A program made the translations under genes and the position numbers. Shown here piece after piece: positions 13,146 through 29,700 of a stretch of DNA of 64,000 bases. Each line of letters starts with the position of its first letter. Position 1 is the stretch's first letter. Below the pieces are notes generated by a model that did no database searches, was not told where the DNA came from, and saw only the letters and a program-made list of their open reading frames with translations. The DNA is from Mustelus asterias (taxonomy: Eukaryota), in the NCBI RefSeq assembly GCF_964213995.1, contig NW_027590177.1, positions 558,001 through 622,000 of the forward strand, written 5' to 3'.

Positions 13146-13787
13146 GATTCGGGGTGTAGGTTGGGATCTTGCTGTTTGGAGCTGATCATGCAGATAAAGA
13201 TTGGGATCTTGCTGTGTCTGTGTGTGGTTCCACTAAGGTTTATATTGTCTGTTTTAGGACCATATTCTTGTTTCCCAAACGTTAAGTAACAGATATTTGT
13301 TTGTGGGGTTGTTTGATTTGGAACAGTACACTTGGCTGTTCAGGTTTATACAATATCATGGTTGTTCTTTTTTTGTAATTGATAAAAATTATGCAAATTT
13401 TCTTGTTATATGTTAACTGTGTTCTTAAATAAGATTTTACATTGTTTATAATGGGATTGTGAAAACCACATTGTGTTGTTCCCATGTGATTCTGTGGTTT
13501 CTGAGAGCAGGTCTTCCTGTGTTCGGATATTCTGTTGGTTTCAGGATGTCTCAGTGTTTACATGTCCTACAATTTCCTTCAATTCAATGTTGTTTTTCAT
13601 CAGTCCCTGATGTGGAAATCAAATTATGGCTTCAACCCTCAGTAAATGGGTGCACTATGTTTGTGTGTGTGGCTGTGTGAGAGGGTCAGGTTGGGTGTGT
13701 CGTTGTGGGGGGTTGTCTGTCCCTATCTCGCTCTGTCTGTGTTGGTTTGAAGGAACCTTCGCTAACTGGTGTCTGTTGTTTTCTTCT

Positions 13788-14102
13788 TAGAATCCCGACA
13801 GTACAGGAGGAGGCCATTCAGCCCATCGAGCCTGCACTGACAACAATCCCACCCTATCCCCGTAACCTCACATCTATTTACACTGCCAATCCCCCTGAAA
13901 TTAGGATCGATTTAGCATGGCCAATCAACCTAACCAGCACATCTTTGGACTGTGGGAGGAGACCGGAGCACCCGGAGGAAACCCACGCAGACACGAGGAG
14001 AATGTGCAAACTCCACACAGACAGTGACCCAAGCCGGGAATTGAATCCGGGTCCCTGGCGCTGACAGGCAGCAGTGCTAACCACTGTGCTACCGTGCTGC
14101 CC
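13788..14102 (-). mobile_element. HE1/V-SINE-type SINE
   Basis: Consensus head, core and tail on the minus strand. Confidence 0.9.
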
Positions 14103-14129
14103 TTGTGTTAGTATGTCTTGTGTTAGTTT

Positions 14130-14545
14130 AAACACTGCAGTTTGGAGAGGGGAGACTGGAGATGGGGAGTAGATTGTAAGGATGGTGGGGTCAAGGCTTT
14201 GTTTTTTGACACGGGTGTACTGATGGCAAATTCGAAAGAGGGACAGTACCTGAGAGAATCATTGACAATGTCCGCGGACACAGGGAAGTAGGAGATCAGT
14301 AGTTTAGTGGGAGATTTAGTGGGAATAGAGTCAATGGAGCAGGAGGTGGGGCTCATGGGCAAAATGAGTCTTAAGAAGCCATTAGGGGAGACGGGAGGGA
14401 AACGAGAGAAAGATGTTGATTCAGGGCTCCGGAAAGGTTGAAATTTAGAGAGAGTTTGGCCTTGTGGAAGAGAGAGAGTCAGCAGAGGCAGCTGATCAGA
14501 TTGTCCCAATCTTAGTGACAAAGAAGCTCCATGAAATCCTCATAC
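14130..14545 (-). mobile_element. Decayed L2-like LINE RT fragment
   Basis: CSIDSIPTK...ADIVNDSL...AISTPV resembles the pre-RT region of L2 elements. Confidence 0.55.
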
Positions 14546-18320: not shown

Positions 18321-18508
18321 TGTAATGTGGATAGGGCACATTCTCACCCGCAGAGAATGTTGGGTAATCACCCCGCCATTCACACTGGTTTTGTTAAAAA
18401 GAAAATATGGTTTGCGATCTGAATATGATTGGTACCATTGGGCCACTATAACAAATGTATTAAATCGATTGATATGGAACTAAGGACTGATATAGTAACT
18501 AAGGACTG

Positions 18509-18821
18509 AGGTGGCACAGTTGCAAGCGCTGCTGTCTCACAGCACCAGGGAACCAGGTTCAATTCCGGCCTTGGGTTACTGTCTGTGTGGACTTTGCATG
18601 TTCTCCCTGTGTCTGTGCGGGTGTCTTCCGGGTGCTCTGGTTTCCTCCCACAGTCCAAAGGTGTGCAGGTTATGTTAATTGGCTATGCTAAAATGCCCCT
18701 TAGTGTCAGGGGGATTAGCAGGGTGGATACTTGGGGTTATGGGGATAGTGCATGGGTAGGATTGTTGTCGGTGTGGGCTGAATGGCCTCCTTCTGCACGG
18801 TAGGGATTCTATGATTCTATG
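18509..18821 (+). mobile_element. HE1/V-SINE-type SINE
   Basis: Consensus core and (attctatg)2 tail. Confidence 0.88.
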
Positions 18822-19654
18822 AGCATAGGCTCTCCACTAAAGTTCGGTTCTGGGTCTGATTGACAACAGAACAAACATCTACAGTTAGAAGTGAACACAT
18901 CAGGATCTCAGCAGGTTTTCCCCATGGACAGAACAGTTAAACTGCCCCTTGCCAATAAGAATGCTGACATTGGATCAAATGCTTTGAGCTTTTAAAGTCA
19001 GAGTATTAGCCACTGAGGAAAACTAAGGAAATCCCTTTGCACATGTGAAGTGTCTGAGTGTTGTCCCTCTAGTCTAACTGTGCTGTTCTATCGGTAAATG
19101 AGATGACTGAGTGAATCCATTTCCACATTCAACTGGGAAATAATCTTTTGATAATGGGATTTTACCCAAAGATTTACAGCTCCGACGGTAATCTCACACC
19201 TTCTGATGATGTGTTCAGCATTCTTTGTGCTCTCCAGTCAAAGACAAGTAAAATATTGCAGATGCTGGAAATCAAAATGTAAAATTCTGGAAATACTCAG
19301 CAGATCTAGTAGCATCTGTAGAGCAAGAAACAGAGTTTGCATTTTAGGCCCATGACCATTCAACACCCAGGCCTGAAAATTAGCACACTTTCTCCAACCA
19401 GAGATAGGCTATTATTTCCAGCATTTTCTGTTTTTATTTCTCATCTGTCTGAGAATGGAAACATCTTCCACTTGTCTACTGTGTCGAGCCTTTTCATAAT
19501 CTTAATCAGATCATCCTCACTCCCTTTTCCAGAGAAAATATTTACAGACTGTCCAGTCTTTCTTGCTGGGTATAACTGCCTGTTCAGGCATCTTTCTAGT
19601 CTATTTTCCCGCATCTTCTCCAGTCCTTCTAGACCCATTTTATAATAGCAGTCC

Positions 19655-20317
19655 GTGCAGGGATCCCCGGTGGTCGTTCCCCTTAGCAACAAGTATTCCG
19701 CTTTGGATATGGTTGAGGGGGATGACATACCAGTGGGGAGCCGCAGTGAGAGGATCTCCAGCACTGTGTCCGTCTCTGTGGCTCGGGAGGGAAAGGGGGA
19801 GAGCGGGAGGGCGATAGTTATTGGGGACTCGTTAGTTAGAGGGATAGATAGGAGGTTCTGTGGCAGCAAAAGAGACTCACGGATGGTATGTTGCCTACCG
19901 GATGCCAAGGTCCGTGATGTCTCAGACCGTGTTTTCCAGATTCTGAAGGGGGAGGGGAAACAGTCACAAGTCGTGGTGCACATTGGTACCAATGACATAG
20001 GTAAGAGAAGGGACGGGGATTTAAAGCAGGAATTTCTGGAGCTGGGCTGGAAGCTGAGAGCCAAGACGAAACATGTGGTCATCTCTGGTACGTTGCCGGT
20101 ACCACGTGATAGCGAGTTGAGGAACAGGGAGAGAGTGCAGTTAAATATGTGGTTGCAGGGATGGTGTAGGAGGGAGGGTTTCAGATACGTGGATAATTGG
20201 AACACGTTCTGGGGAAGGTGGGACCTGTACAAACAGGACGGGGTGCACCTGAACCAGAGGGGCACCAATATCCTCGGAGGGAAATTTGTTACGGCTCTTC
20301 AGGGGGGTTTAAACTAA
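19655..20317 (+). CDS. LINE ORF1 C-terminal part, SGNH/GDSL esterase domain
   Basis: SGNH blocks VIGDSLVRG, VHIGTND and DGVHLN. It begins at GTG because the N-terminus was lost by truncation. Confidence 0.9.
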   Translation: MQGSPVVVPLSNKYSALDMVEGDDIPVGSRSERISSTVSVSVAREGKGESGRAIVIGDSLVRGIDRRFCGSKRDSRMVCCLPDAKVRDVSDRVFQILKGEGKQSQVVVHIGTNDIGKRRDGDLKQEFLELGWKLRAKTKHVVISGTLPVPRDSELRNRERVQLNMWLQGWCRREGFRYVDNWNTFWGRWDLYKQDGVHLNQRGTNILGGKFVTALQGGLN

Positions 20318-23211
20318 TTTGTCAGGGGAGTGGGAAAGGGAGTTGTAGTCCAGAAGTCAGTGAGGGTGGTGAGGTATTGGGGAAGGTATCAGGGTCAAGG
20401 GTGGGTACTGGTAGACAGGAAGGTGGGTTGAAGTGTGTCTACTTCAATGCAAGGAGCATCCGGAACAAGGTAGATGAACTTGGGGCGTGGATTGGTACTT
20501 GGGACTACGATGTTGTGGCCATTACGGAGACGTGGGTAGAACAAGGACAGGAATGGTTGTTGGACGTTCCGGGGTATAGATGTTTCACTAAGTGTAGGGA
20601 AGCTGGTAAAAGAGGTGGAGGAGTGGCATTGTTAATCAAGGATAGTTTAACGGCTGCGGAAAGGCACTTCGTGGGGGATCTGCACACTGAGGTAATATGG
20701 GCTGAAGTTAGAAATAGGAAAGGAGCGGTCACGTTGCTAGGAGTTTACTATAGGCCCCCAAATAGTAATAGAGATGTGGAGGAAGAAATTGCTAAGCATA
20801 TTATGGATATGTGTGGGGGTCACAGGGTAGTTGTCATGGGGGACTTTAACTTTCCAAATATTGATTGGAACCTTTGTAGGTCAAATAGTTTGGATGGGGC
20901 AGTTTTTGTGCAGTGTGTGCGGGAGGGTTTCCTGACACAATATGTGGATGGGCCAACTAGAGGTGAGGCCACATTGGATTTGGTACTGGGAAATGAACCG
21001 GGCCAAGTGTTAGATTTGGTTGTGGGAGAGCACTTTGGAGATAGTGACCACAATTCGGTGTCTTTTGTTATTGCAATGGAGAGGGATAGGGCCGTACGGC
21101 AGGGCAAGGTTTACAATTGGGGGAGAGGTAATTATGATGCGATTAGGCAAGAATTAGGGGGCATAAGTTGGGAACAGAAACTGTCAGAGAAAGGAACTAA
21201 TGAAAAGTGGAATTTTTTCAAGGAACAAATACTGGATGTCCTTGATAGGTATGTTCCTGTCAGGCAGGGAGGAAATGGCCGAGTGAGGGAACCATGGTTC
21301 ACAAAAGAGGTGGAATGTCTTGTGAAAAGGAAGAGGGAAGCTTATGTCGGGATGAGGAAACAAGGTTCAGATGGCTCGATTGAGGGTTACAAGTTAGCAA
21401 GGAATGAGCTGAAAAAGGGGCTGAGGAGAGCTAGGAGGGGACATGAGAAGTCCTTGGCGGGTCGGATCAAGGAAAACCCCAAGGCTTTTTACTCTTATGT
21501 GAGGAATAAAAGAATGACCAGGGTGAGGTTAGGGCCGGTCAAGGACAGTAGTGGGAACTTGTGTATGGAGTCAGTAGAGATAGGCGAGGTGATGAATGAA
21601 TACTTTTCTTCAGTGTTCACCAAGGAGAGGGGCCATGTTTTTGAGGAAGAGAAGGTGTTACAGGCTAATAGGCTGGAGGAAATAGATGTTCGGAGGGAGG
21701 ATGTCTTGGCAGTTTTGAATAAACTGAAGGTCGATAAGTCCCCTGGGCCTGATGAAATGTATCCTAGGATTCTTTGGGAGGCAAGGGATGAGATTGCAGA
21801 GCCTTTGGCGTTGATCTTTGGGTCCTCGCTGTCCACGGGGATGGTGCCAGAGGACTGGAGAATGGCGAATGTTGTTCCTCTGTTTAAGAAAGGGAATAGA
21901 AATGACCCTGGTAATTATAGACTGGTTAGTCTTACTTCGGTGGTTGGTAAATTGATGGAAAGGGTCCTTAGGGATGGGATTTACGACCATTTAGAAAGAT
22001 GCGGATTAATCCGAGATAGTCAGCACGGATTCGTGAAGGGCAAGTCGTGCCTCACAAATTTGATAGAATTTTTTGAGGAGGTAACTAAGTGTGTTGATGA
22101 AGGTAGGGCAGTTGATGTCATATACATGGATTTTAGTAAGGCGTTTGATAAGGTCCCCCATGGTCGGCTTATGATGAAAGTGAGGAGGTGTGGGATAGAG
22201 GGAAAGTTGGCCGATTGGATAGGCAACTGGCTGTCTGACCGAAGACAGAGGGTGGTGGTCGATGGAAAATTTTCGGATTGGAGGCAGGTTGCTAGCGGTG
22301 TGCCGCAGGGATCAGTGCTTGGTCCTCTGCTCTTTGTGATTTTTATTAATGACTTAGAGGAGGGGGCTGAAGGGTGGATCAGTAAATTTGCTGATGACAC
22401 CAAGATTGGTGGAGTAGTGGATGAGGTGGAGGGCTGTTGTAGGCTGCAAAGAGACATAGATAGGATGCAAAGCTGGGCTGAAAAATGGCAAATGGAGTTT
22501 AACCCTGATAAATGTGAGGTGATTCATTTTGGTAGGACAAATTTAAATGTGGATTACAGGGTCAAAGGTAGGGTTCTGAAGACTGTGGAGGAACAGAGAG
22601 ATCTTGGGGTCCATATCCACAGATCTCTAAAGGTTGCCACTCAAGTGGATAGAGCTGTGAAGAAGGCCTGTAGTGTGTTAGCTTTTATTAACAGGGGGCT
22701 GGAGTTTAAGAGCCGTGGGGTTATGCTGCAACTGTACAGGACCTTGGTGAGACCACATTTGGAATATTGTGTGCAGTTCTGGTCACCTCACTATAGGAAG
22801 GATGTGGAAGCGCTGGAAGGAGTGCAGAGGAGATTTACCAGGATGCTGCCTGGTTTGGAGGGTAGGTCATATGAGGAAAGGTTGAGGGAGCTAGGGCTAT
22901 TCTCTCTGGAGCGGAGGAGGCTGAGGGGAGACTTAATAGAGGTGTATAAAATGATGAAGGGGATAGATAGAGTGAACGTTCAAAGACTATTTCCTCGGGT
23001 GGATGGAGCTATTACAAGGGGGCATAACTATAGGGTTCGTGGTGGGAGATACAGGACGGATATCAGAGGTAGGTTCTTTACGCAGAGAGTGGTTGGGGTG
23101 TGGAATGGACTGCCTGCAGTGATAGTGGAGTCAGACACTTTAGAAACATTTAAGCGGTTATTGGATAGGCACATGGAGCACACCAGGATGATAGGGAGTG
23201 GGATAGCTTGA
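20308..23211 (+). CDS. LINE ORF2: APE endonuclease plus reverse transcriptase
   Basis: CVYFNARS, ITETW, GVYYRPP, GDFN, SDH (APE); QHGF, DFSKAFD, PQGSVLGP, FADD (RT). No stops. The frame is open from 20197 but the first ATG is at 20803, so the start given is the proposed frameshift site. Confidence 0.93.
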   Translation, partial: FKLICQGSGKGSCSPEVSEGGEVLGKVSGSRVGTGRQEGGLKCVYFNARSIRNKVDELGAWIGTWDYDVVAITETWVEQGQEWLLDVPGYRCFTKCREAGKRGGGVALLIKDSLTAAERHFVGDLHTEVIWAEVRNRKGAVTLLGVYYRPPNSNRDVEEEIAKHIMDMCGGHRVVVMGDFNFPNIDWNLCRSNSLDGAVFVQCVREGFLTQYVDGPTRGEATLDLVLGNEPGQVLDLVVGEHFGDSDHNSVSFVIAMERDRAVRQGKVYNWGRGNYDAIRQELGGISWEQKLSEKGTNEKWNFFKEQILDVLDRYVPVRQGGNGRVREPWFTKEVECLVKRKREAYVGMRKQGSDGSIEGYKLARNELKKGLRRARRGHEKSLAGRIKENPKAFYSYVRNKRMTRVRLGPVKDSSGNLCMESVEIGEVMNEYFSSVFTKERGHVFEEEKVLQANRLEEIDVRREDVLAVLNKLKVDKSPGPDEMYPRILWEARDEIAEPLALIFGSSLSTGMVPEDWRMANVVPLFKKGNRNDPGNYRLVSLTSVVGKLMERVLRDGIYDHLERCGLIRDSQHGFVKGKSCLTNLIEFFEEVTKCVDEGRAVDVIYMDFSKAFDKVPHGRLMMKVRRCGIEGKLADWIGNWLSDRRQRVVVDGKFSDWRQVASGVPQGSVLGPLLFVIFINDLEEGAEGWISKFADDTKIGGVVDEVEGCCRLQRDIDRMQSWAEKWQMEFNPDKCEVIHFGRTNLNVDYRVKGRVLKTVEEQRDLGVHIHRSLKVATQVDRAVKKACSVLAFINRGLEFKSRGVMLQLYRTLVRPHLEYCVQFWSPHYRKDVEALEGVQRRFTRMLPGLEGRSYEERLRELGLFSLERRRLRGDLIEVYKMMKGIDRVNVQRLFPRVDGAITRGHNYRVRGGRYRTDIRGRFFTQRVVGVWNGLPAVIVESDTLETFKRLLDRHMEHTRMIGSGIA

Positions 23212-24719
23212 TCTTGGTTTCAGATAAAGCTCGGCACAACATCGTGGGCCGAAGGGCCTGTTCTGTGCTGTACTGTTCTATGTTCTATGTTCTAATATGG
23301 AGACTGGAGACATCAGCTAATCTGAGCAGCAAACTCACTATTGTCCCCAAATCCCTGCATGTTGAAGTATTTTAGCCATTTTCCAATCAGCTGAATATGA
23401 GATGGGATGGAATATACAGATTCAACAAGTCAGTCTGTAACACTGTGGAGCATCTCCAACTTGCCTCTTCCCCTTACTATTAAACAGTTGATTTTTTCAC
23501 TCTTAATCTGTCAGTTATGGCACTAAGAATAAAGGGCTGAATGGCCTATTTCTGCTTCTATTTCATACGTCTGTATGTATGTTAGTATTGAATGGGAAAC
23601 TAGAGGTACAATGAGAGATTGAAATGAGGAATGATGTGAGGAAGCTCCTTTGGAGCAGAAACACTGAGCTGGACTTGTTGTGTCCAATGGCCTGTTTTGC
23701 CTCCTGTGTCATTTCACTCCTGAAGGGTCTGCTTCAAACTTTTAGACAATGCCACAGATTCCTGGACTGTCAAACCAGCAGAAATAATTTATATTTACCC
23801 TCTGTTCCTCTTCATGTGTTTGATTCTTTTACTGTCACTGTTAATCACACCCAGAACTGAACCATGTTCATTCTGGTAATTGGAGTTTATTTCTACTGAT
23901 TATTAATATCTTTGTAACTGGGCTGGAGTTTAATATCTTGATGTCAGTTAAATAAATCAACTTTGTTTCAAACAGTGTGTCAAGTACTTGATTTCTCCAG
24001 GATTAATTGATTGATTAATTGATGTCCTGTTACCGACTGTTCTGTTTTTGGATCTTTTCTCCTTTCTAACTCTAGATTATTTCAGTTCTCATACCTTCAG
24101 TTACTCTCATGGACAAGTCCCAGCTCCTCGTACCTTCCAGAGTGTCTCTCCCAGCCTAGAGATTCAGGGAAGTTTCAGTATTAAAAACAGAAAATGCTGG
24201 AGTTAGTAATCCATACTTTTCCAAGTATCAGTTGATTGTGTCCCAGATTATTGGTTTCATTTTCCCCACCGCTGATGTTAAGCTGATTGTTCTGTAATTG
24301 CTGTGTTTTGAACAGGGATGTAACATTTACATTCTCTCAGTCCTTTGTCACCACTACTCTATAAGGATTGGAAGATTGTGGTCAGAGCCTCCACAAACTC
24401 CATGTGAAGGACACTGTGTCAGAGTGCAGCAGTCCCTCAATGTCAGACTGCAGTGTCAGCCTAGATAATGTGCTCAGCTTGATGAGTATTTCCTGTTGTT
24501 ATTGATGTGGATCATTCAGAAACAATGGACTCTGATGATGTCATCCAGTCCTGCTGCGATGATGTCATAGAGACTATTACATCACAGCGGAGCCTTAGTG
24601 GAGAAAACAGTTTTGTTCCAGACGGCAGCAAGTCCATTACTGATAGATCTGGAAATGAGAAGACTGGGAATGAAAGCACCCCAAGTTATTTCAGAGGAGT
24701 TTCATAAAGAAAAAAATGA

Positions 24720-26754: not shown

Positions 26755-29700
26755 TTACTTGTGGCCTTGCTGGTGTCTCAGCAGATGGGATGACTGAGTG
26801 AATCCCCTCCCACACACAGAGCAGGAGAACGGTTTCTCCCCGGTGTGAATGCGCCGGTGTTTCAGCAGACTGGATGAGTGATTGAATCCCTTCCCACACT
26901 CAGAGCAGCTGAGCGGCCTCTCCCCAGTGTGAATTCTCTGGTGTACAGTGAGCTGAGATGATTTCCTGAATCCAGTCCCACAGCGAGAGCATCTGAACGG
27001 TCTCTCGTCAGTGTGAATACGTTGATGGGTCACCAGTTCCCCAGAACTTTTAAAGCACTTCCCACAATCCAGGCATTTAAATGGTCTCTCGTCAGAGTGA
27101 ACCCGTTGATGGGATGTTAGTTCCACAGAACTTTAAAAGCACTTCTCACAGTTCAGGCACTTAAAGGGTCTCTCATCAGTGTGAACTCGCTGATGTTTCA
27201 GTAGGTGAGATGACTGAGTGAATCCCTTCCCACACACAGAGCAGGTAAATGGTTTCTCCCCAGTGTGGATTCGCTGGTGTTTCAGCAGATCAGATAACTG
27301 AATGAATCCATTCCCACAATCGGAGCAGGTAAATGGTCTCTCTCCAGTGTGAATTCGCTGATGTGTCATCAGGTGGTGACACATCAGGCACTGATGAAAA
27401 GTGGAACTTTTTCAAGGAACAAATACTGGGTGTCCTTGATAGGTATGTCCCTGTCAGGCAGGGAGGAAATGGCCGAGTGAGGGAACCGTGGTTCGCAAAA
27501 GAGGTGGAATGTCTTGTGAAAAGGAAGAGGGAAGCTTATGTAGGGATGAGGAAACAAGGTTCAGATGGCTCGACTGAGGGTTACAAGTTAGCAAGGAACA
27601 AGCTGAAAAAGGGGCTGAGGAGAGCTTGGAGGGGACATGAGAAGTCCTTGGCGGGTCGGATCAAGGAAAACCCCAAGGCTTTTTACTCTTATGTGAGGAA
27701 TAAAAGAATGACCAGGGTGAGGTTAGGGCCGGTCAAGGACAGTGGTGGGAACTTGTGTATGGAATCAGTAGAGATAGGCGAGGTGATGAATGAATACTTT
27801 TCTTCAGTGTTCACCAAGGAGAGGGGCCATGTTTTTCAGGAAGAGAAGGTGTTACAGGCTAATAGGCTGGAGGAAATAGATGTTCGGAGGGAGGATGTAT
27901 TGGCAGTTTTGAATAAACTGAAGGTCGATAAGTCCCCTGGGCCTGATGAAATGTATCCTAGGATTCTTTGGGAGGCGAGGGATGAGATTGCAGAGCCTTT
28001 GGCTTTGATCTTTGGGTCCTCGCTGTCCACGGGGATGGTGCCAGAGGACTGGAGAGTGGCAAATGTTGTTCCTCTGTTTAAGAAAGGGAATAGAAATGAC
28101 CCTGGTAATTATAGACCGGTTAGTCTGACTTCGGTGGTTGGTAAATTGATGGAAAAGGTCCTTAGGGATGGGATTTACGACCATTTAGAAAGATGCGGAT
28201 TAATCCGGGATAGTCAGCACGGATTTGTGAAGGGCAAATCGTGCCTCACAAATTTGATAGAATTTTTTGAGGAGGTAACTAGGTGTGTTGATGAAGGTAG
28301 GGCGGTTGATGTCATATACATGGATTTTAGTAAGGCGTTTGATAAGGTCCCCCATGGTCGGCTTATGATGAAAGTAAGGAGGTGTGGGATAGAGGGAAAG
28401 TTGGCCGATTGGATAGGTAACTGGCTGTCTGATCGAAGACAGAGGGTGGTGGTGGATGGAAAATTTTCGGACTGGAGGCAGGTTGCTAGCGGAGTGCCGC
28501 AGGGATCGGTGCTTGGTCCTCTGCTCTTTGTGATTTTTATTAATGACTTAGAGGAGGGGGCTGAAGGGTGGATCAGTAAATTTGCTGATGACACCAAGAT
28601 TGGTGGAGTAGTGGATGAGGTGGAGGGGTGTTGTAGGCTGCAAAGAGACATAGATAGGATGCAAAGCTGGGCTGAAAAATGGCAAATGGAGTTTAACCCT
28701 GATAAATGTGAGGTGATTCATTTTGGTAGGACTAATTTAAATGTGGATTACAGGGTCAAAGGTAGGGTTCTGAAGACTGTGGAGGAACAGAGAGATCTTG
28801 GGGTCCATATCCACAGATCTCTAAAGGTTGCCACTCAAGTGGATAGAGCTGTGAAGAAGGCATATAGTGTGTTAGCTTTTATTAACAGGGGGTTGGAGTT
28901 TAAGAGCCGTGGGGTTATGCTGCAACTGTACAGGACCTTGGTGAGACCGCATTTGGAATATTGCGTGCAGTTCTGGTCACCTCACTATAAGAAGGATGTG
29001 GAAGCGCTGGAAAGAGTGCAGAGGAGATTTACCAGGATGCTGCCTGGTTTGGAGTGTCGGTCTTATGAGGAAAGGTTGAGGGAGCTGGGGCTGTTCTCTC
29101 TGGAGCGGAGGAGATTGAGGGGAGACTTAATAGAGGTTTATAAAATGATGAAGGGGATAGATCGAGTGAACGTTCAAAGACTATTTCCTCGGGTGGATGG
29201 AGCTATTACGAGGGGGCATAACTATAGGGTTCATGGTGGGAGATATAGGAAGGATATCAGAGGTAGGTTCTTCACGCAGAGAGTGGTTGGGGTGTGGAAT
29301 GGACTGCCTGCAGTGATAGTGGAGTCAGACACTTTAGGAACATTTAAGCGGTTATTGGATAGGCACATGGAGCACACCAGGATGGTAGGGAGTGGGATAG
29401 CTTGATCTTGGTTTCAGATGAAGGTCGGCACAACATCGTGGGCCGAAGGGCCTGTTCTGTGCTGTACTGTTCTATGTTCTATGTAGGTGGGATGACTGAG
29501 TGAATCCCTTCCAACACACAGAGCAGGTGAATGGCCTTTCCCCAGTGTGACCACGTTGGTGTCCTAACAGATTGGATAACTGAGTGAATCCCTTCCCACA
29601 CTCAGAACATGTGAATGGTCTCTCCCCATTGTGATCTCGCTGGTGTTTTAGCAGACTGGATGACTGAGTGAATCCCTTCCCACACTGAGGGCAGGTGAAT

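Follow-up and report, generated by a model that had tools for sequence, protein, structure and literature searches.

A family of CR1-type long interspersed nuclear elements (LINEs) in the shark Mustelus asterias very probably makes the product of its second open reading frame (ORF2) by −1 programmed ribosomal frameshifting, as a fusion of ORF1 and ORF2. We studied a copy of this family that lies in a stretch of 64,000 nucleotides of the assembly GCF_964213995.1 (contig NW_027590177.1, positions 558,001 to 622,000, forward strand), hereafter called the window; all coordinates are those of the window unless indicated otherwise. The frameshift fusion is the most likely reading because a conserved slippery heptamer stands in phase immediately before the ORF1 stop codon and ORF2 follows in the −1 frame without an AUG of its own. 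On the evidence of sequence comparison, the junction of the two ORFs is a real and conserved recoding signal. A preliminary description of this DNA had proposed an esterase-APE-RT fusion protein made by frameshifting; the layout of the junction, its conservation at synonymous sites and the exchange of the heptamer for other slippery classes in relatives all argue for that proposal. The features of the element that are needed below are as follows.

19647 to 23295, plus strand: CR1-type LINE, a very young, 5'-truncated copy (blastn to a fuller sibling, L061: 96.4% over 3653 nt)
19649 to 20317, plus strand: ORF1 remnant, the last 222 of about 308 codons, an SGNH/GDSL esterase (PF13472, E 2.3e-12)
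20237 to 20251, plus strand: esterase D-G-x-H-L motif, found by sequence; it served to anchor copies without reference to the junction
20308 to 20314, plus strand: slippery heptamer U_UUA_AAC in ORF1 phase, by sequence; ORF1 ends GGT TTA AAC TAA
20315 to 20317, plus strand: ORF1 stop codon TAA, directly after the heptamer; most other lineages have TAG, and one has TAT TAA
20308 to 23211, plus strand: ORF2 in the −1 frame, 967 codons counted from the heptamer, with a linker, then the APE endonuclease, then the reverse transcriptase (RT) (PF03372, PF00078)
20401 to 20403, plus strand: in-frame GTG ahead of the endonuclease, with A at −3 and G at +4; the protein P0218 is called from here
about 20440 to 21051, plus strand: APE endonuclease of ORF2 (PF03372, residues 45–248; exonuclease III and L1 endonuclease matches)
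20803 to 20805, plus strand: first in-frame ATG of ORF2, 3' of Asn47 (endonuclease motif I) and Glu74 (motif II)
about 21892 to 22611, plus strand: RT of ORF2 (PF00078, residues 529–768)
23212 to 23295, plus strand: 3' untranslated region (UTR) with a short tandem-repeat tail and no poly(A), from the sequence and a comparison of tails

The heptamer can be read directly from the sequence: T_TTA_AAC occupies 20308–20314 in the phase described earlier, directly before the ORF1 TAA. It has the X_XXY_YYZ form of a canonical −1 frameshift site and lies within the overlap with the −1 ORF. At the heptamer the ORF2 frame reads TTT AAA CTA; this frame is open from 20197 onward, and its 1004 stop-free codons encode the endonuclease and the RT. 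Direct reading and the Pfam placement confirm that the first ATG of ORF2, at 20803, is located about 120 codons inside the endonuclease (Pfam residues 45–248); counted from 20308, it is codon 166. A protein started there would lose the stretch aligned to residues 2–117 of exonuclease III and most of the stretch aligned to residues 22–150 of the L1 endonuclease. An in-frame ATG between 20317 and 20430 does not occur across the family: among 1055 candidate copies in the genome of 3.7 Gb, the 40 best-scoring ones (chosen by score) are all identical over 20150–20520. Of 30 fetched siblings, 29 have their first ORF2 Met at codon 166.

To the conservation of the heptamer we applied a sampling that did not use the heptamer itself. 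A PF13472 search gave 150 matches, of which ranks 1–30 and 91–150 (90 in total) were fetched, and the copies were anchored on the esterase D-G-x-H-L motif; eight had no anchor, which left 82. TTTAAAC is present in 73 of these copies and TTTAAAT in two; four have a single substitution, and three are non-homologous or interrupted past the anchor. Searches with other ORF1 proteins added 40 copies, of which 37 carry TTTAAAC as well. The copies were sorted by eye into 14 lineages, which are related to each other. The last two ORF1 codons are TTA AAC in all 14, so that the heptamer is conserved at synonymous sites and beyond what the protein needs. The codon before TTA encodes Gly, Ser, Asp, Ala or Thr, yet its third base is always T. 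The invariant Asp and Leu upstream use two and three codons, respectively. Strict slippery heptamers occur at only 117 of 38,802 ORF2 positions (0.3%) of the 14 lineages. TTTAAAC occurs at none of them outside the junction, with about two expected, and is possibly avoided within ORF2. Another candidate site in the window, TTTAAACTA at 14124–14132 on the minus strand, was rejected: it lies inside a decayed LINE-like fragment beside a short interspersed nuclear element (SINE), not at an ORF1/ORF2 junction.

The constancy of TTA AAC might be sought in the protein, with a C-terminal Leu-Asn under constraint and with ORF2 started independently downstream, from the GTG at 20401 or from linker ATGs, through internal entry or a shorter or spliced RNA. 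Indeed, most complete ORF1 homologues end in LN, the GTG stands in a good context ahead of the endonuclease, and two lineages have ATGs in the linker. We nevertheless regard this explanation as very unlikely. A protein constraint leaves the codons free, and in ORF2 of the window copy TTA accounts for 15 of 81 Leu codons and AAC for 10 of 37 Asn codons. Distant relatives end in GN or carry an internal KN, i.e., they keep slippery classes rather than one residue. An independent start does not account for the linker either. It varies from 107 to 266 nt across the 12 lineages with a usable endonuclease, and the −1 relation is always kept, with the −1 frame open as far back as the heptamer; in this frame the linker has no stop codons in 10 of the 12 lineages and one stop in the other two, and the +1 frame has 3–7 stops in all 12. 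As to a spliced RNA, a contig of 1757 nt from a probable RNA run spans 19649–21040 with no gap across the junction, and no joint that skips the ORF1 stop was found in the run contigs.

The contigs of these sequencing runs have their own limits: the RNA status of the runs is mostly guessed, rare variants are dropped, and one run (X8) barely covers the region. In the contigs of four runs the segment 20305–20328 is free of listed variants, indels and joints, with 17 variant rows in 20263–20304 and 16 in 20329–20448 on its two sides. These data bear on the suggestion that the frames are joined in the RNA, by polymerase slippage or editing that adds one base at the heptamer or at nearby G-runs. A run of six G precedes the heptamer and further G-runs follow it. 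A genomic copy, L061, has gained a base in a G-run upstream and is fused in frame. However, no indels at the junction are listed in the contigs of five distinct runs, and the conserved unit is no long homopolymer but a codon-phased X_XXY_YYZ, the form that tRNA slippage typically needs. We consider joining at the RNA level to be hardly credible.

L061 itself (G000:C12:51333500-51340000, minus strand) was examined as a possible naturally fused lineage and rejected, being a single copy with one extra base upstream. It is a near full-length sibling with a fused frame of 1290 codons, and the extra base belongs to a G-run that lies some 50 nt upstream of the junction. Among longer esterase homologues we found one protein, which is not a fusion.

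A more serious competitor of frameshifting is termination-reinitiation, in which ribosomes stop at UAA and restart on ORF2 at or near the stop codon, making ORF2p a separate protein. Reinitiation is known for LINEs: excerpts of PMC5972666 and PMC3708506 name SART1 (UAAUG) and, as a proposal, AUG-independent reinitiation in L1, and according to the same part of PMC5972666, caliciviral reinitiation tolerates non-AUG codons. Two of the 14 lineages have an in-frame TAATG overlap, and the window copy has the near-cognate ATT at that place. A UGGGA at 20219 of the window copy is a candidate motif for such a restart. The codon over the stop, however, is not a conserved start, because it is GAA, GTT or GTA in 61 of 71 Pfam-selected copies (28, 26 and 7, respectively); ATG was found in three and other codons in seven. 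Thus an AUG at or near the ORF1 stop is seen in 3 of 71 copies and 2 of 14 lineages, and the copy under study has ATT. Reinitiation offers no reason for a fixed T-TTA-AAC or for its exchange for other slippery classes. One lineage (L225, L226) reads TTA AAC TAT TAA, with the stop shifted by one codon and the heptamer and the G-run behind it unmoved, which is unlike reinitiation. The same can be said of the A_AAA_AAC sites described below, which stand 10–11 codons before the stop in elements whose endonuclease has no preceding ATG. On balance, reinitiation appears to be unlikely as the general mode of ORF2 translation.

The frameshift reading is strengthened by distant relatives of the element. 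We scanned metagenome contigs with a pattern made of esterase residues only, with no heptamer, and obtained 55 loci, about half of them unrelated. Among the 26 CR1-like loci examined, 14 have an intact junction, i.e., an endonuclease in the −1 frame that is open back over the ORF1 stop, and 12 are broken or short. An in-phase slippery heptamer within the overlap is present at 12 of the 14 intact junctions versus 0.7 expected; the heptamer is thus either kept or exchanged for another slippery class. It is U_UUA_AAC at three junctions (L162, L164, L195), G_GGA_AAC at two (L185, L196), A_AAA_AAC at six (L176, L178, L190, L199, L205, L212) and G_GGU_UUU plus U_UUU_UUA at one (L216). The four heptamer classes seen are the most shift-prone ones named in an excerpt of the frameshift review PMC5009743. 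The A_AAA_AAC sites follow TCA, CCA or GCA. A heptamer was also found at the ORF1 end in five of the 12 broken or short loci (L163, L168, L171, L202, L210). In a tree of 23 endonuclease domains (four rows were too short and were skipped), the distant loci form deep branches; the tree does not resolve relations among the heptamer classes.

At the protein level, a profile search gave 87 ORF1 homologues with the motif, and among the short-tailed ones 41 end in LN and nine in GN. ORF1 proteins of a snake, a lizard, a swallow, turtles, an eel and a mormyrid terminate in LN, and their spacing from the motif is the same, as judged from protein only. The comparison of shark, turtle and bird junctions that had been suggested earlier therefore stands in part: TTTAAAC is kept in shark DNA, and the turtle and bird data agree at the level of the LN protein end. 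Viral contigs scanned with the patterns A1, A3, A4 and A5 gave no matches, and a scan of prokaryotic genomes gave one match only, an unrelated bacterial GDSL gene.

Several observations weigh against frameshifting, or against its general use. In-frame ATGs ahead of endonuclease motif I are present in 4 of 12 intact lineages (as a TAATG stop overlap in two, at codon 19 in one and at codon 49 in one), and in L196 a Met precedes motif I by four codons. The −1 frame by itself would equally be given by a UAAUG stop-restart, and the GTG at 20401 is in a good context throughout the window family and is a possible non-AUG start of ORF2 under the rival model. Mixed or lineage-specific use of frameshifting and reinitiation is possible. 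A strict heptamer is absent from two of the 14 intact distant junctions (L197 and L211, the latter one substitution off). A lineage with a fixed in-frame esterase-ORF2 fusion was not found among the longer proteins, in what was a weak search. The counts given above are not independent, because the shark lineages and loci are related; L176 and L212, as well as L164 and L195, are near-sisters. Finally, the region behind the heptamer has no stable local structure in folds computed without pseudoknots (minimum free energy (MFE) z-score 0.34; 0.34, 0.37, 0.00 and −1.05 for four folding windows). The stem-loop or pseudoknot that a canonical frameshift site has a few nucleotides downstream is not seen in such folds, and Rfam gave no match near the heptamer.

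What follows the heptamer is a series of G-tracts. The preliminary description had listed eight of them in 20325–20405, including a G-quadruplex-like string, and they are located exactly so.

20325 to 20328, plus strand: G-run that starts at the conserved position +11 behind the heptamer, a candidate unstructured stimulator; four G here, usually five or more
20332 to 20340, plus strand: G-tracts two and three of the series; most shark lineages retain tract two but not tract three
20379 to 20405, plus strand: distal G-quadruplex-like cluster at +65 to +91, lineage-specific and not shared between lineages

The first of these is the conserved one. We compared 19 junctions, namely 14 lineages of the shark genome and five metagenome loci (three of them of one lineage). 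Positions +1 and +2 are TA and positions +11 to +13 are G in all 19 junctions, +14 and +15 are G in 18, and +3 to +10 are variable. The G at +11 fills the third position of four different codons, and the one at +14 that of a Gly codon; GGG makes up 37 of the 97 Gly codons in ORF2 of the window copy. A G fixed at these third codon positions argues for a constraint on the G-run at the RNA level. A short unstructured motif at a fixed spacing of about 10 nt is the arrangement found in the porcine virus PRRSV. The G-run is missing from L196, from L216 and from the five A_AAA_AAC loci that we examined. Stems are predicted in the first 50 nt behind the heptamer in L196 and L199, which have no G-run (−18.0 and −10.6 kcal/mol, respectively); these lineages may use ordinary structured stimulators.

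The suggestion that a G-quadruplex stimulates the shift is weak. The eight tracts of at least three G in 81 nt are the maximum for the element (at most five elsewhere), and the G4Hunter score behind the heptamer, 1.52, is in the top 0.2% of the element. The quoted cluster GGGG-n9-GGG-n4-GGG-t-GGG at 20379–20405 lies 65–91 nt behind the heptamer. Stimulators usually stand 5–9 nt behind the slippery site. G>A variants occur at 20382, 20392 and 20399 of the cluster in related contigs, and it is probably not part of the signal. As a general stimulator a quadruplex was rejected: the four-tract, three-tier pattern within 70 nt is present in 3 of 12 lineages, and a quadruplex appears in the MFE fold of 6 of 12, the lineage of the window copy being in neither group. 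Four distant loci carry a single run of six G only.

We also considered pairing of the G-run with the 3' tail of the element and rejected it, since cognate tails pair no better than non-cognate ones (permutation p 0.37, 12 lineages). Tail pairing ranked first among windows in three elements (L128, L138, L185) of the 18 scanned, several of the 18 being without a tail. In the window copy the junction was outscored by 58 of about 147 windows, and pairing is poorest in the youngest families. The apparent pairing arises because the tail is pyrimidine-rich. Upstream partners of the G-run have no consistent position, and the codons for YRPP and KSPGPD do not preserve their C-runs.

These observations are consistent with the following model of ORF2 expression by frameshifting. 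Most ribosomes would stop at UAA and release the ORF1 protein (ORF1p), an esterase of 308 aa. A smaller share would slip, from UUA-AAC to UUU-AAA, and continue in the −1 frame, giving a product of about 1273 aa that comprises ORF1, the linker, the endonuclease and the RT. The frequency of the slip would set a gag-pol-like ratio of ORF1p to the fusion. Least certain in the model is what stimulates the slip: probably the adjacent stop codon acts together with one unstructured G-run, set off from the heptamer by 10 nt, in place of a G-quadruplex or pseudoknot.

The family of the window element is very young. The window copy begins at about 19647 and lacks the 5' UTR and, of the 308-aa ORF1, the start codon and about 86 codons, including the N-terminal cysteine motif. 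The term "active", which had been applied to this LINE, is thus suitable for the family, which looks active, but not for the window copy. Being without an ORF1 start, the copy documents the signal but is not itself an active element. The 308-aa ORF1 is present in 16 of the 30 fetched siblings, and ORF2 is open to the end of the fetched stretch in 26. The element has the traits of esterase-type CR1s, namely an SGNH esterase in ORF1, APE and RT domains in ORF2, a tandem-repeat 3' end without poly(A) and 5'-truncated copies; its 3' UTR also contains a short GGCC/GGCC inverted repeat at 23246–23258. We use the label CR1 on the basis of this architecture and of section 15 of PMC13343379. ORF1 homologues are known from sharks, rays, turtles, squamates, a bird and teleosts, with shark and ray proteins among the closest named ones.

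Other repeats were noted along the way. The window contains a second copy of the young family at 27387–29402 (plus strand; 97% protein identity, truncated within ORF2) and many older CR1-like fragments scattered over it. Short interspersed repeats at about 18500–18825 (plus strand) and about 13780–14110 (minus strand) have 3' ends like the CR1 tail; they are probably SINEs mobilized by CR1. Two types of 3' tail occur among the shark CR1 lineages (L121–L140 and L217–L256 taken together). Tail type and junction type do not always match (L234), and many shark CR1 copies are nested or chimeric. Three shark-type CR1 proteins (P0005, P0032 and P0220) are labeled in public sources as Pseudomonas aeruginosa, Proteus mirabilis and Carnobacterium; host contamination of the assemblies is the probable cause.

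The finding would matter beyond this family, as CR1-group elements are described in PMC13343379 as the dominant retrotransposon in most vertebrate species, and an excerpt of PMC3708506 calls the mode of LINE ORF2 translation unclear. If the frameshift reading is correct, CR1 produces its ORF2 protein as an esterase-linker-endonuclease-RT fusion, in a proportion like that of retroviruses. The active site of the endonuclease would then be missing from annotations in which ORF2 begins at its first ATG, and constructs for CR1 expression ought to be built from the junction onward. The junction site is a cassette of 30 nt. Its G-run, with the fixed spacer, may be a type of stimulator that the consulted part of the frameshift review PMC5009743 does not list as naturally used. 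A wider generalization can be offered tentatively, although we think it may well be wrong: esterase CR1s, from sharks to birds and far beyond vertebrates, would make RT only as a gag-pol-like fusion, and in the main branch the trigger of the slip would be no RNA structure but a bare G-run, placed exactly 10 nt past the site and read by a trans-acting protein, either a host G-run binder or ORF1p. A mobile element of cells would then provide a natural case of frameshifting stimulated by a protein.

A description of frameshifting in CR1 was not found in the literature searched; older CR1 papers, Repbase notes or supplements may contain an earlier suggestion. The main text of the CR1 survey PMC13343379 does not contain the words frameshift, slippery, translation or overlap, and the text of the esterase structure paper PMC3905857, as far as accessible, does not contain the word frameshift. 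The closest precedent among retrotransposons without long terminal repeats is provided by TRE5-A and TRE3-A of Dictyostelium, whose ORF2, according to a review (PMC5911963), needs a −1 frameshift to be translated. Judging by that statement only, they are similar to CR1 in having ORF1, an APE-RT ORF2 and a −1 frameshift; they differ in belonging to the L1 clade, in the type of ORF1 and in their amoeba host. SART1 and mammalian L1, in the partial accounts cited above, likewise have a bicistronic LINE RNA with ORF2 expressed behind ORF1; they make a separate ORF2p, whereas the CR1 junction has a slippery site and no conserved start codon.

Viral sites provide the other comparison. The coronavirus infectious bronchitis virus uses the same U_UUA_AAC, and in retroviral gag-pol a structural-type protein also precedes the polymerase. 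In contrast to these sites, the CR1 junction has no predicted pseudoknot or stem, and its conserved 3' feature is one unstructured G-run. In nsp2TF of PRRSV, an unstructured motif CCCANCUCC about 11 nt 3' of the shift site is bound by PCBP and nsp1beta (PMC5009743, in part). The G-run of CR1 starts at +11 and is G-rich, not C-rich, so that the likeness is one of position, by analogy. The canonical CR1s of vertebrates, as far as PMC13343379 and PMC3905857 describe them in the parts used here, have the same layout as the shark element: an esterase ORF1, an ORF2 with APE and RT, and no poly(A).

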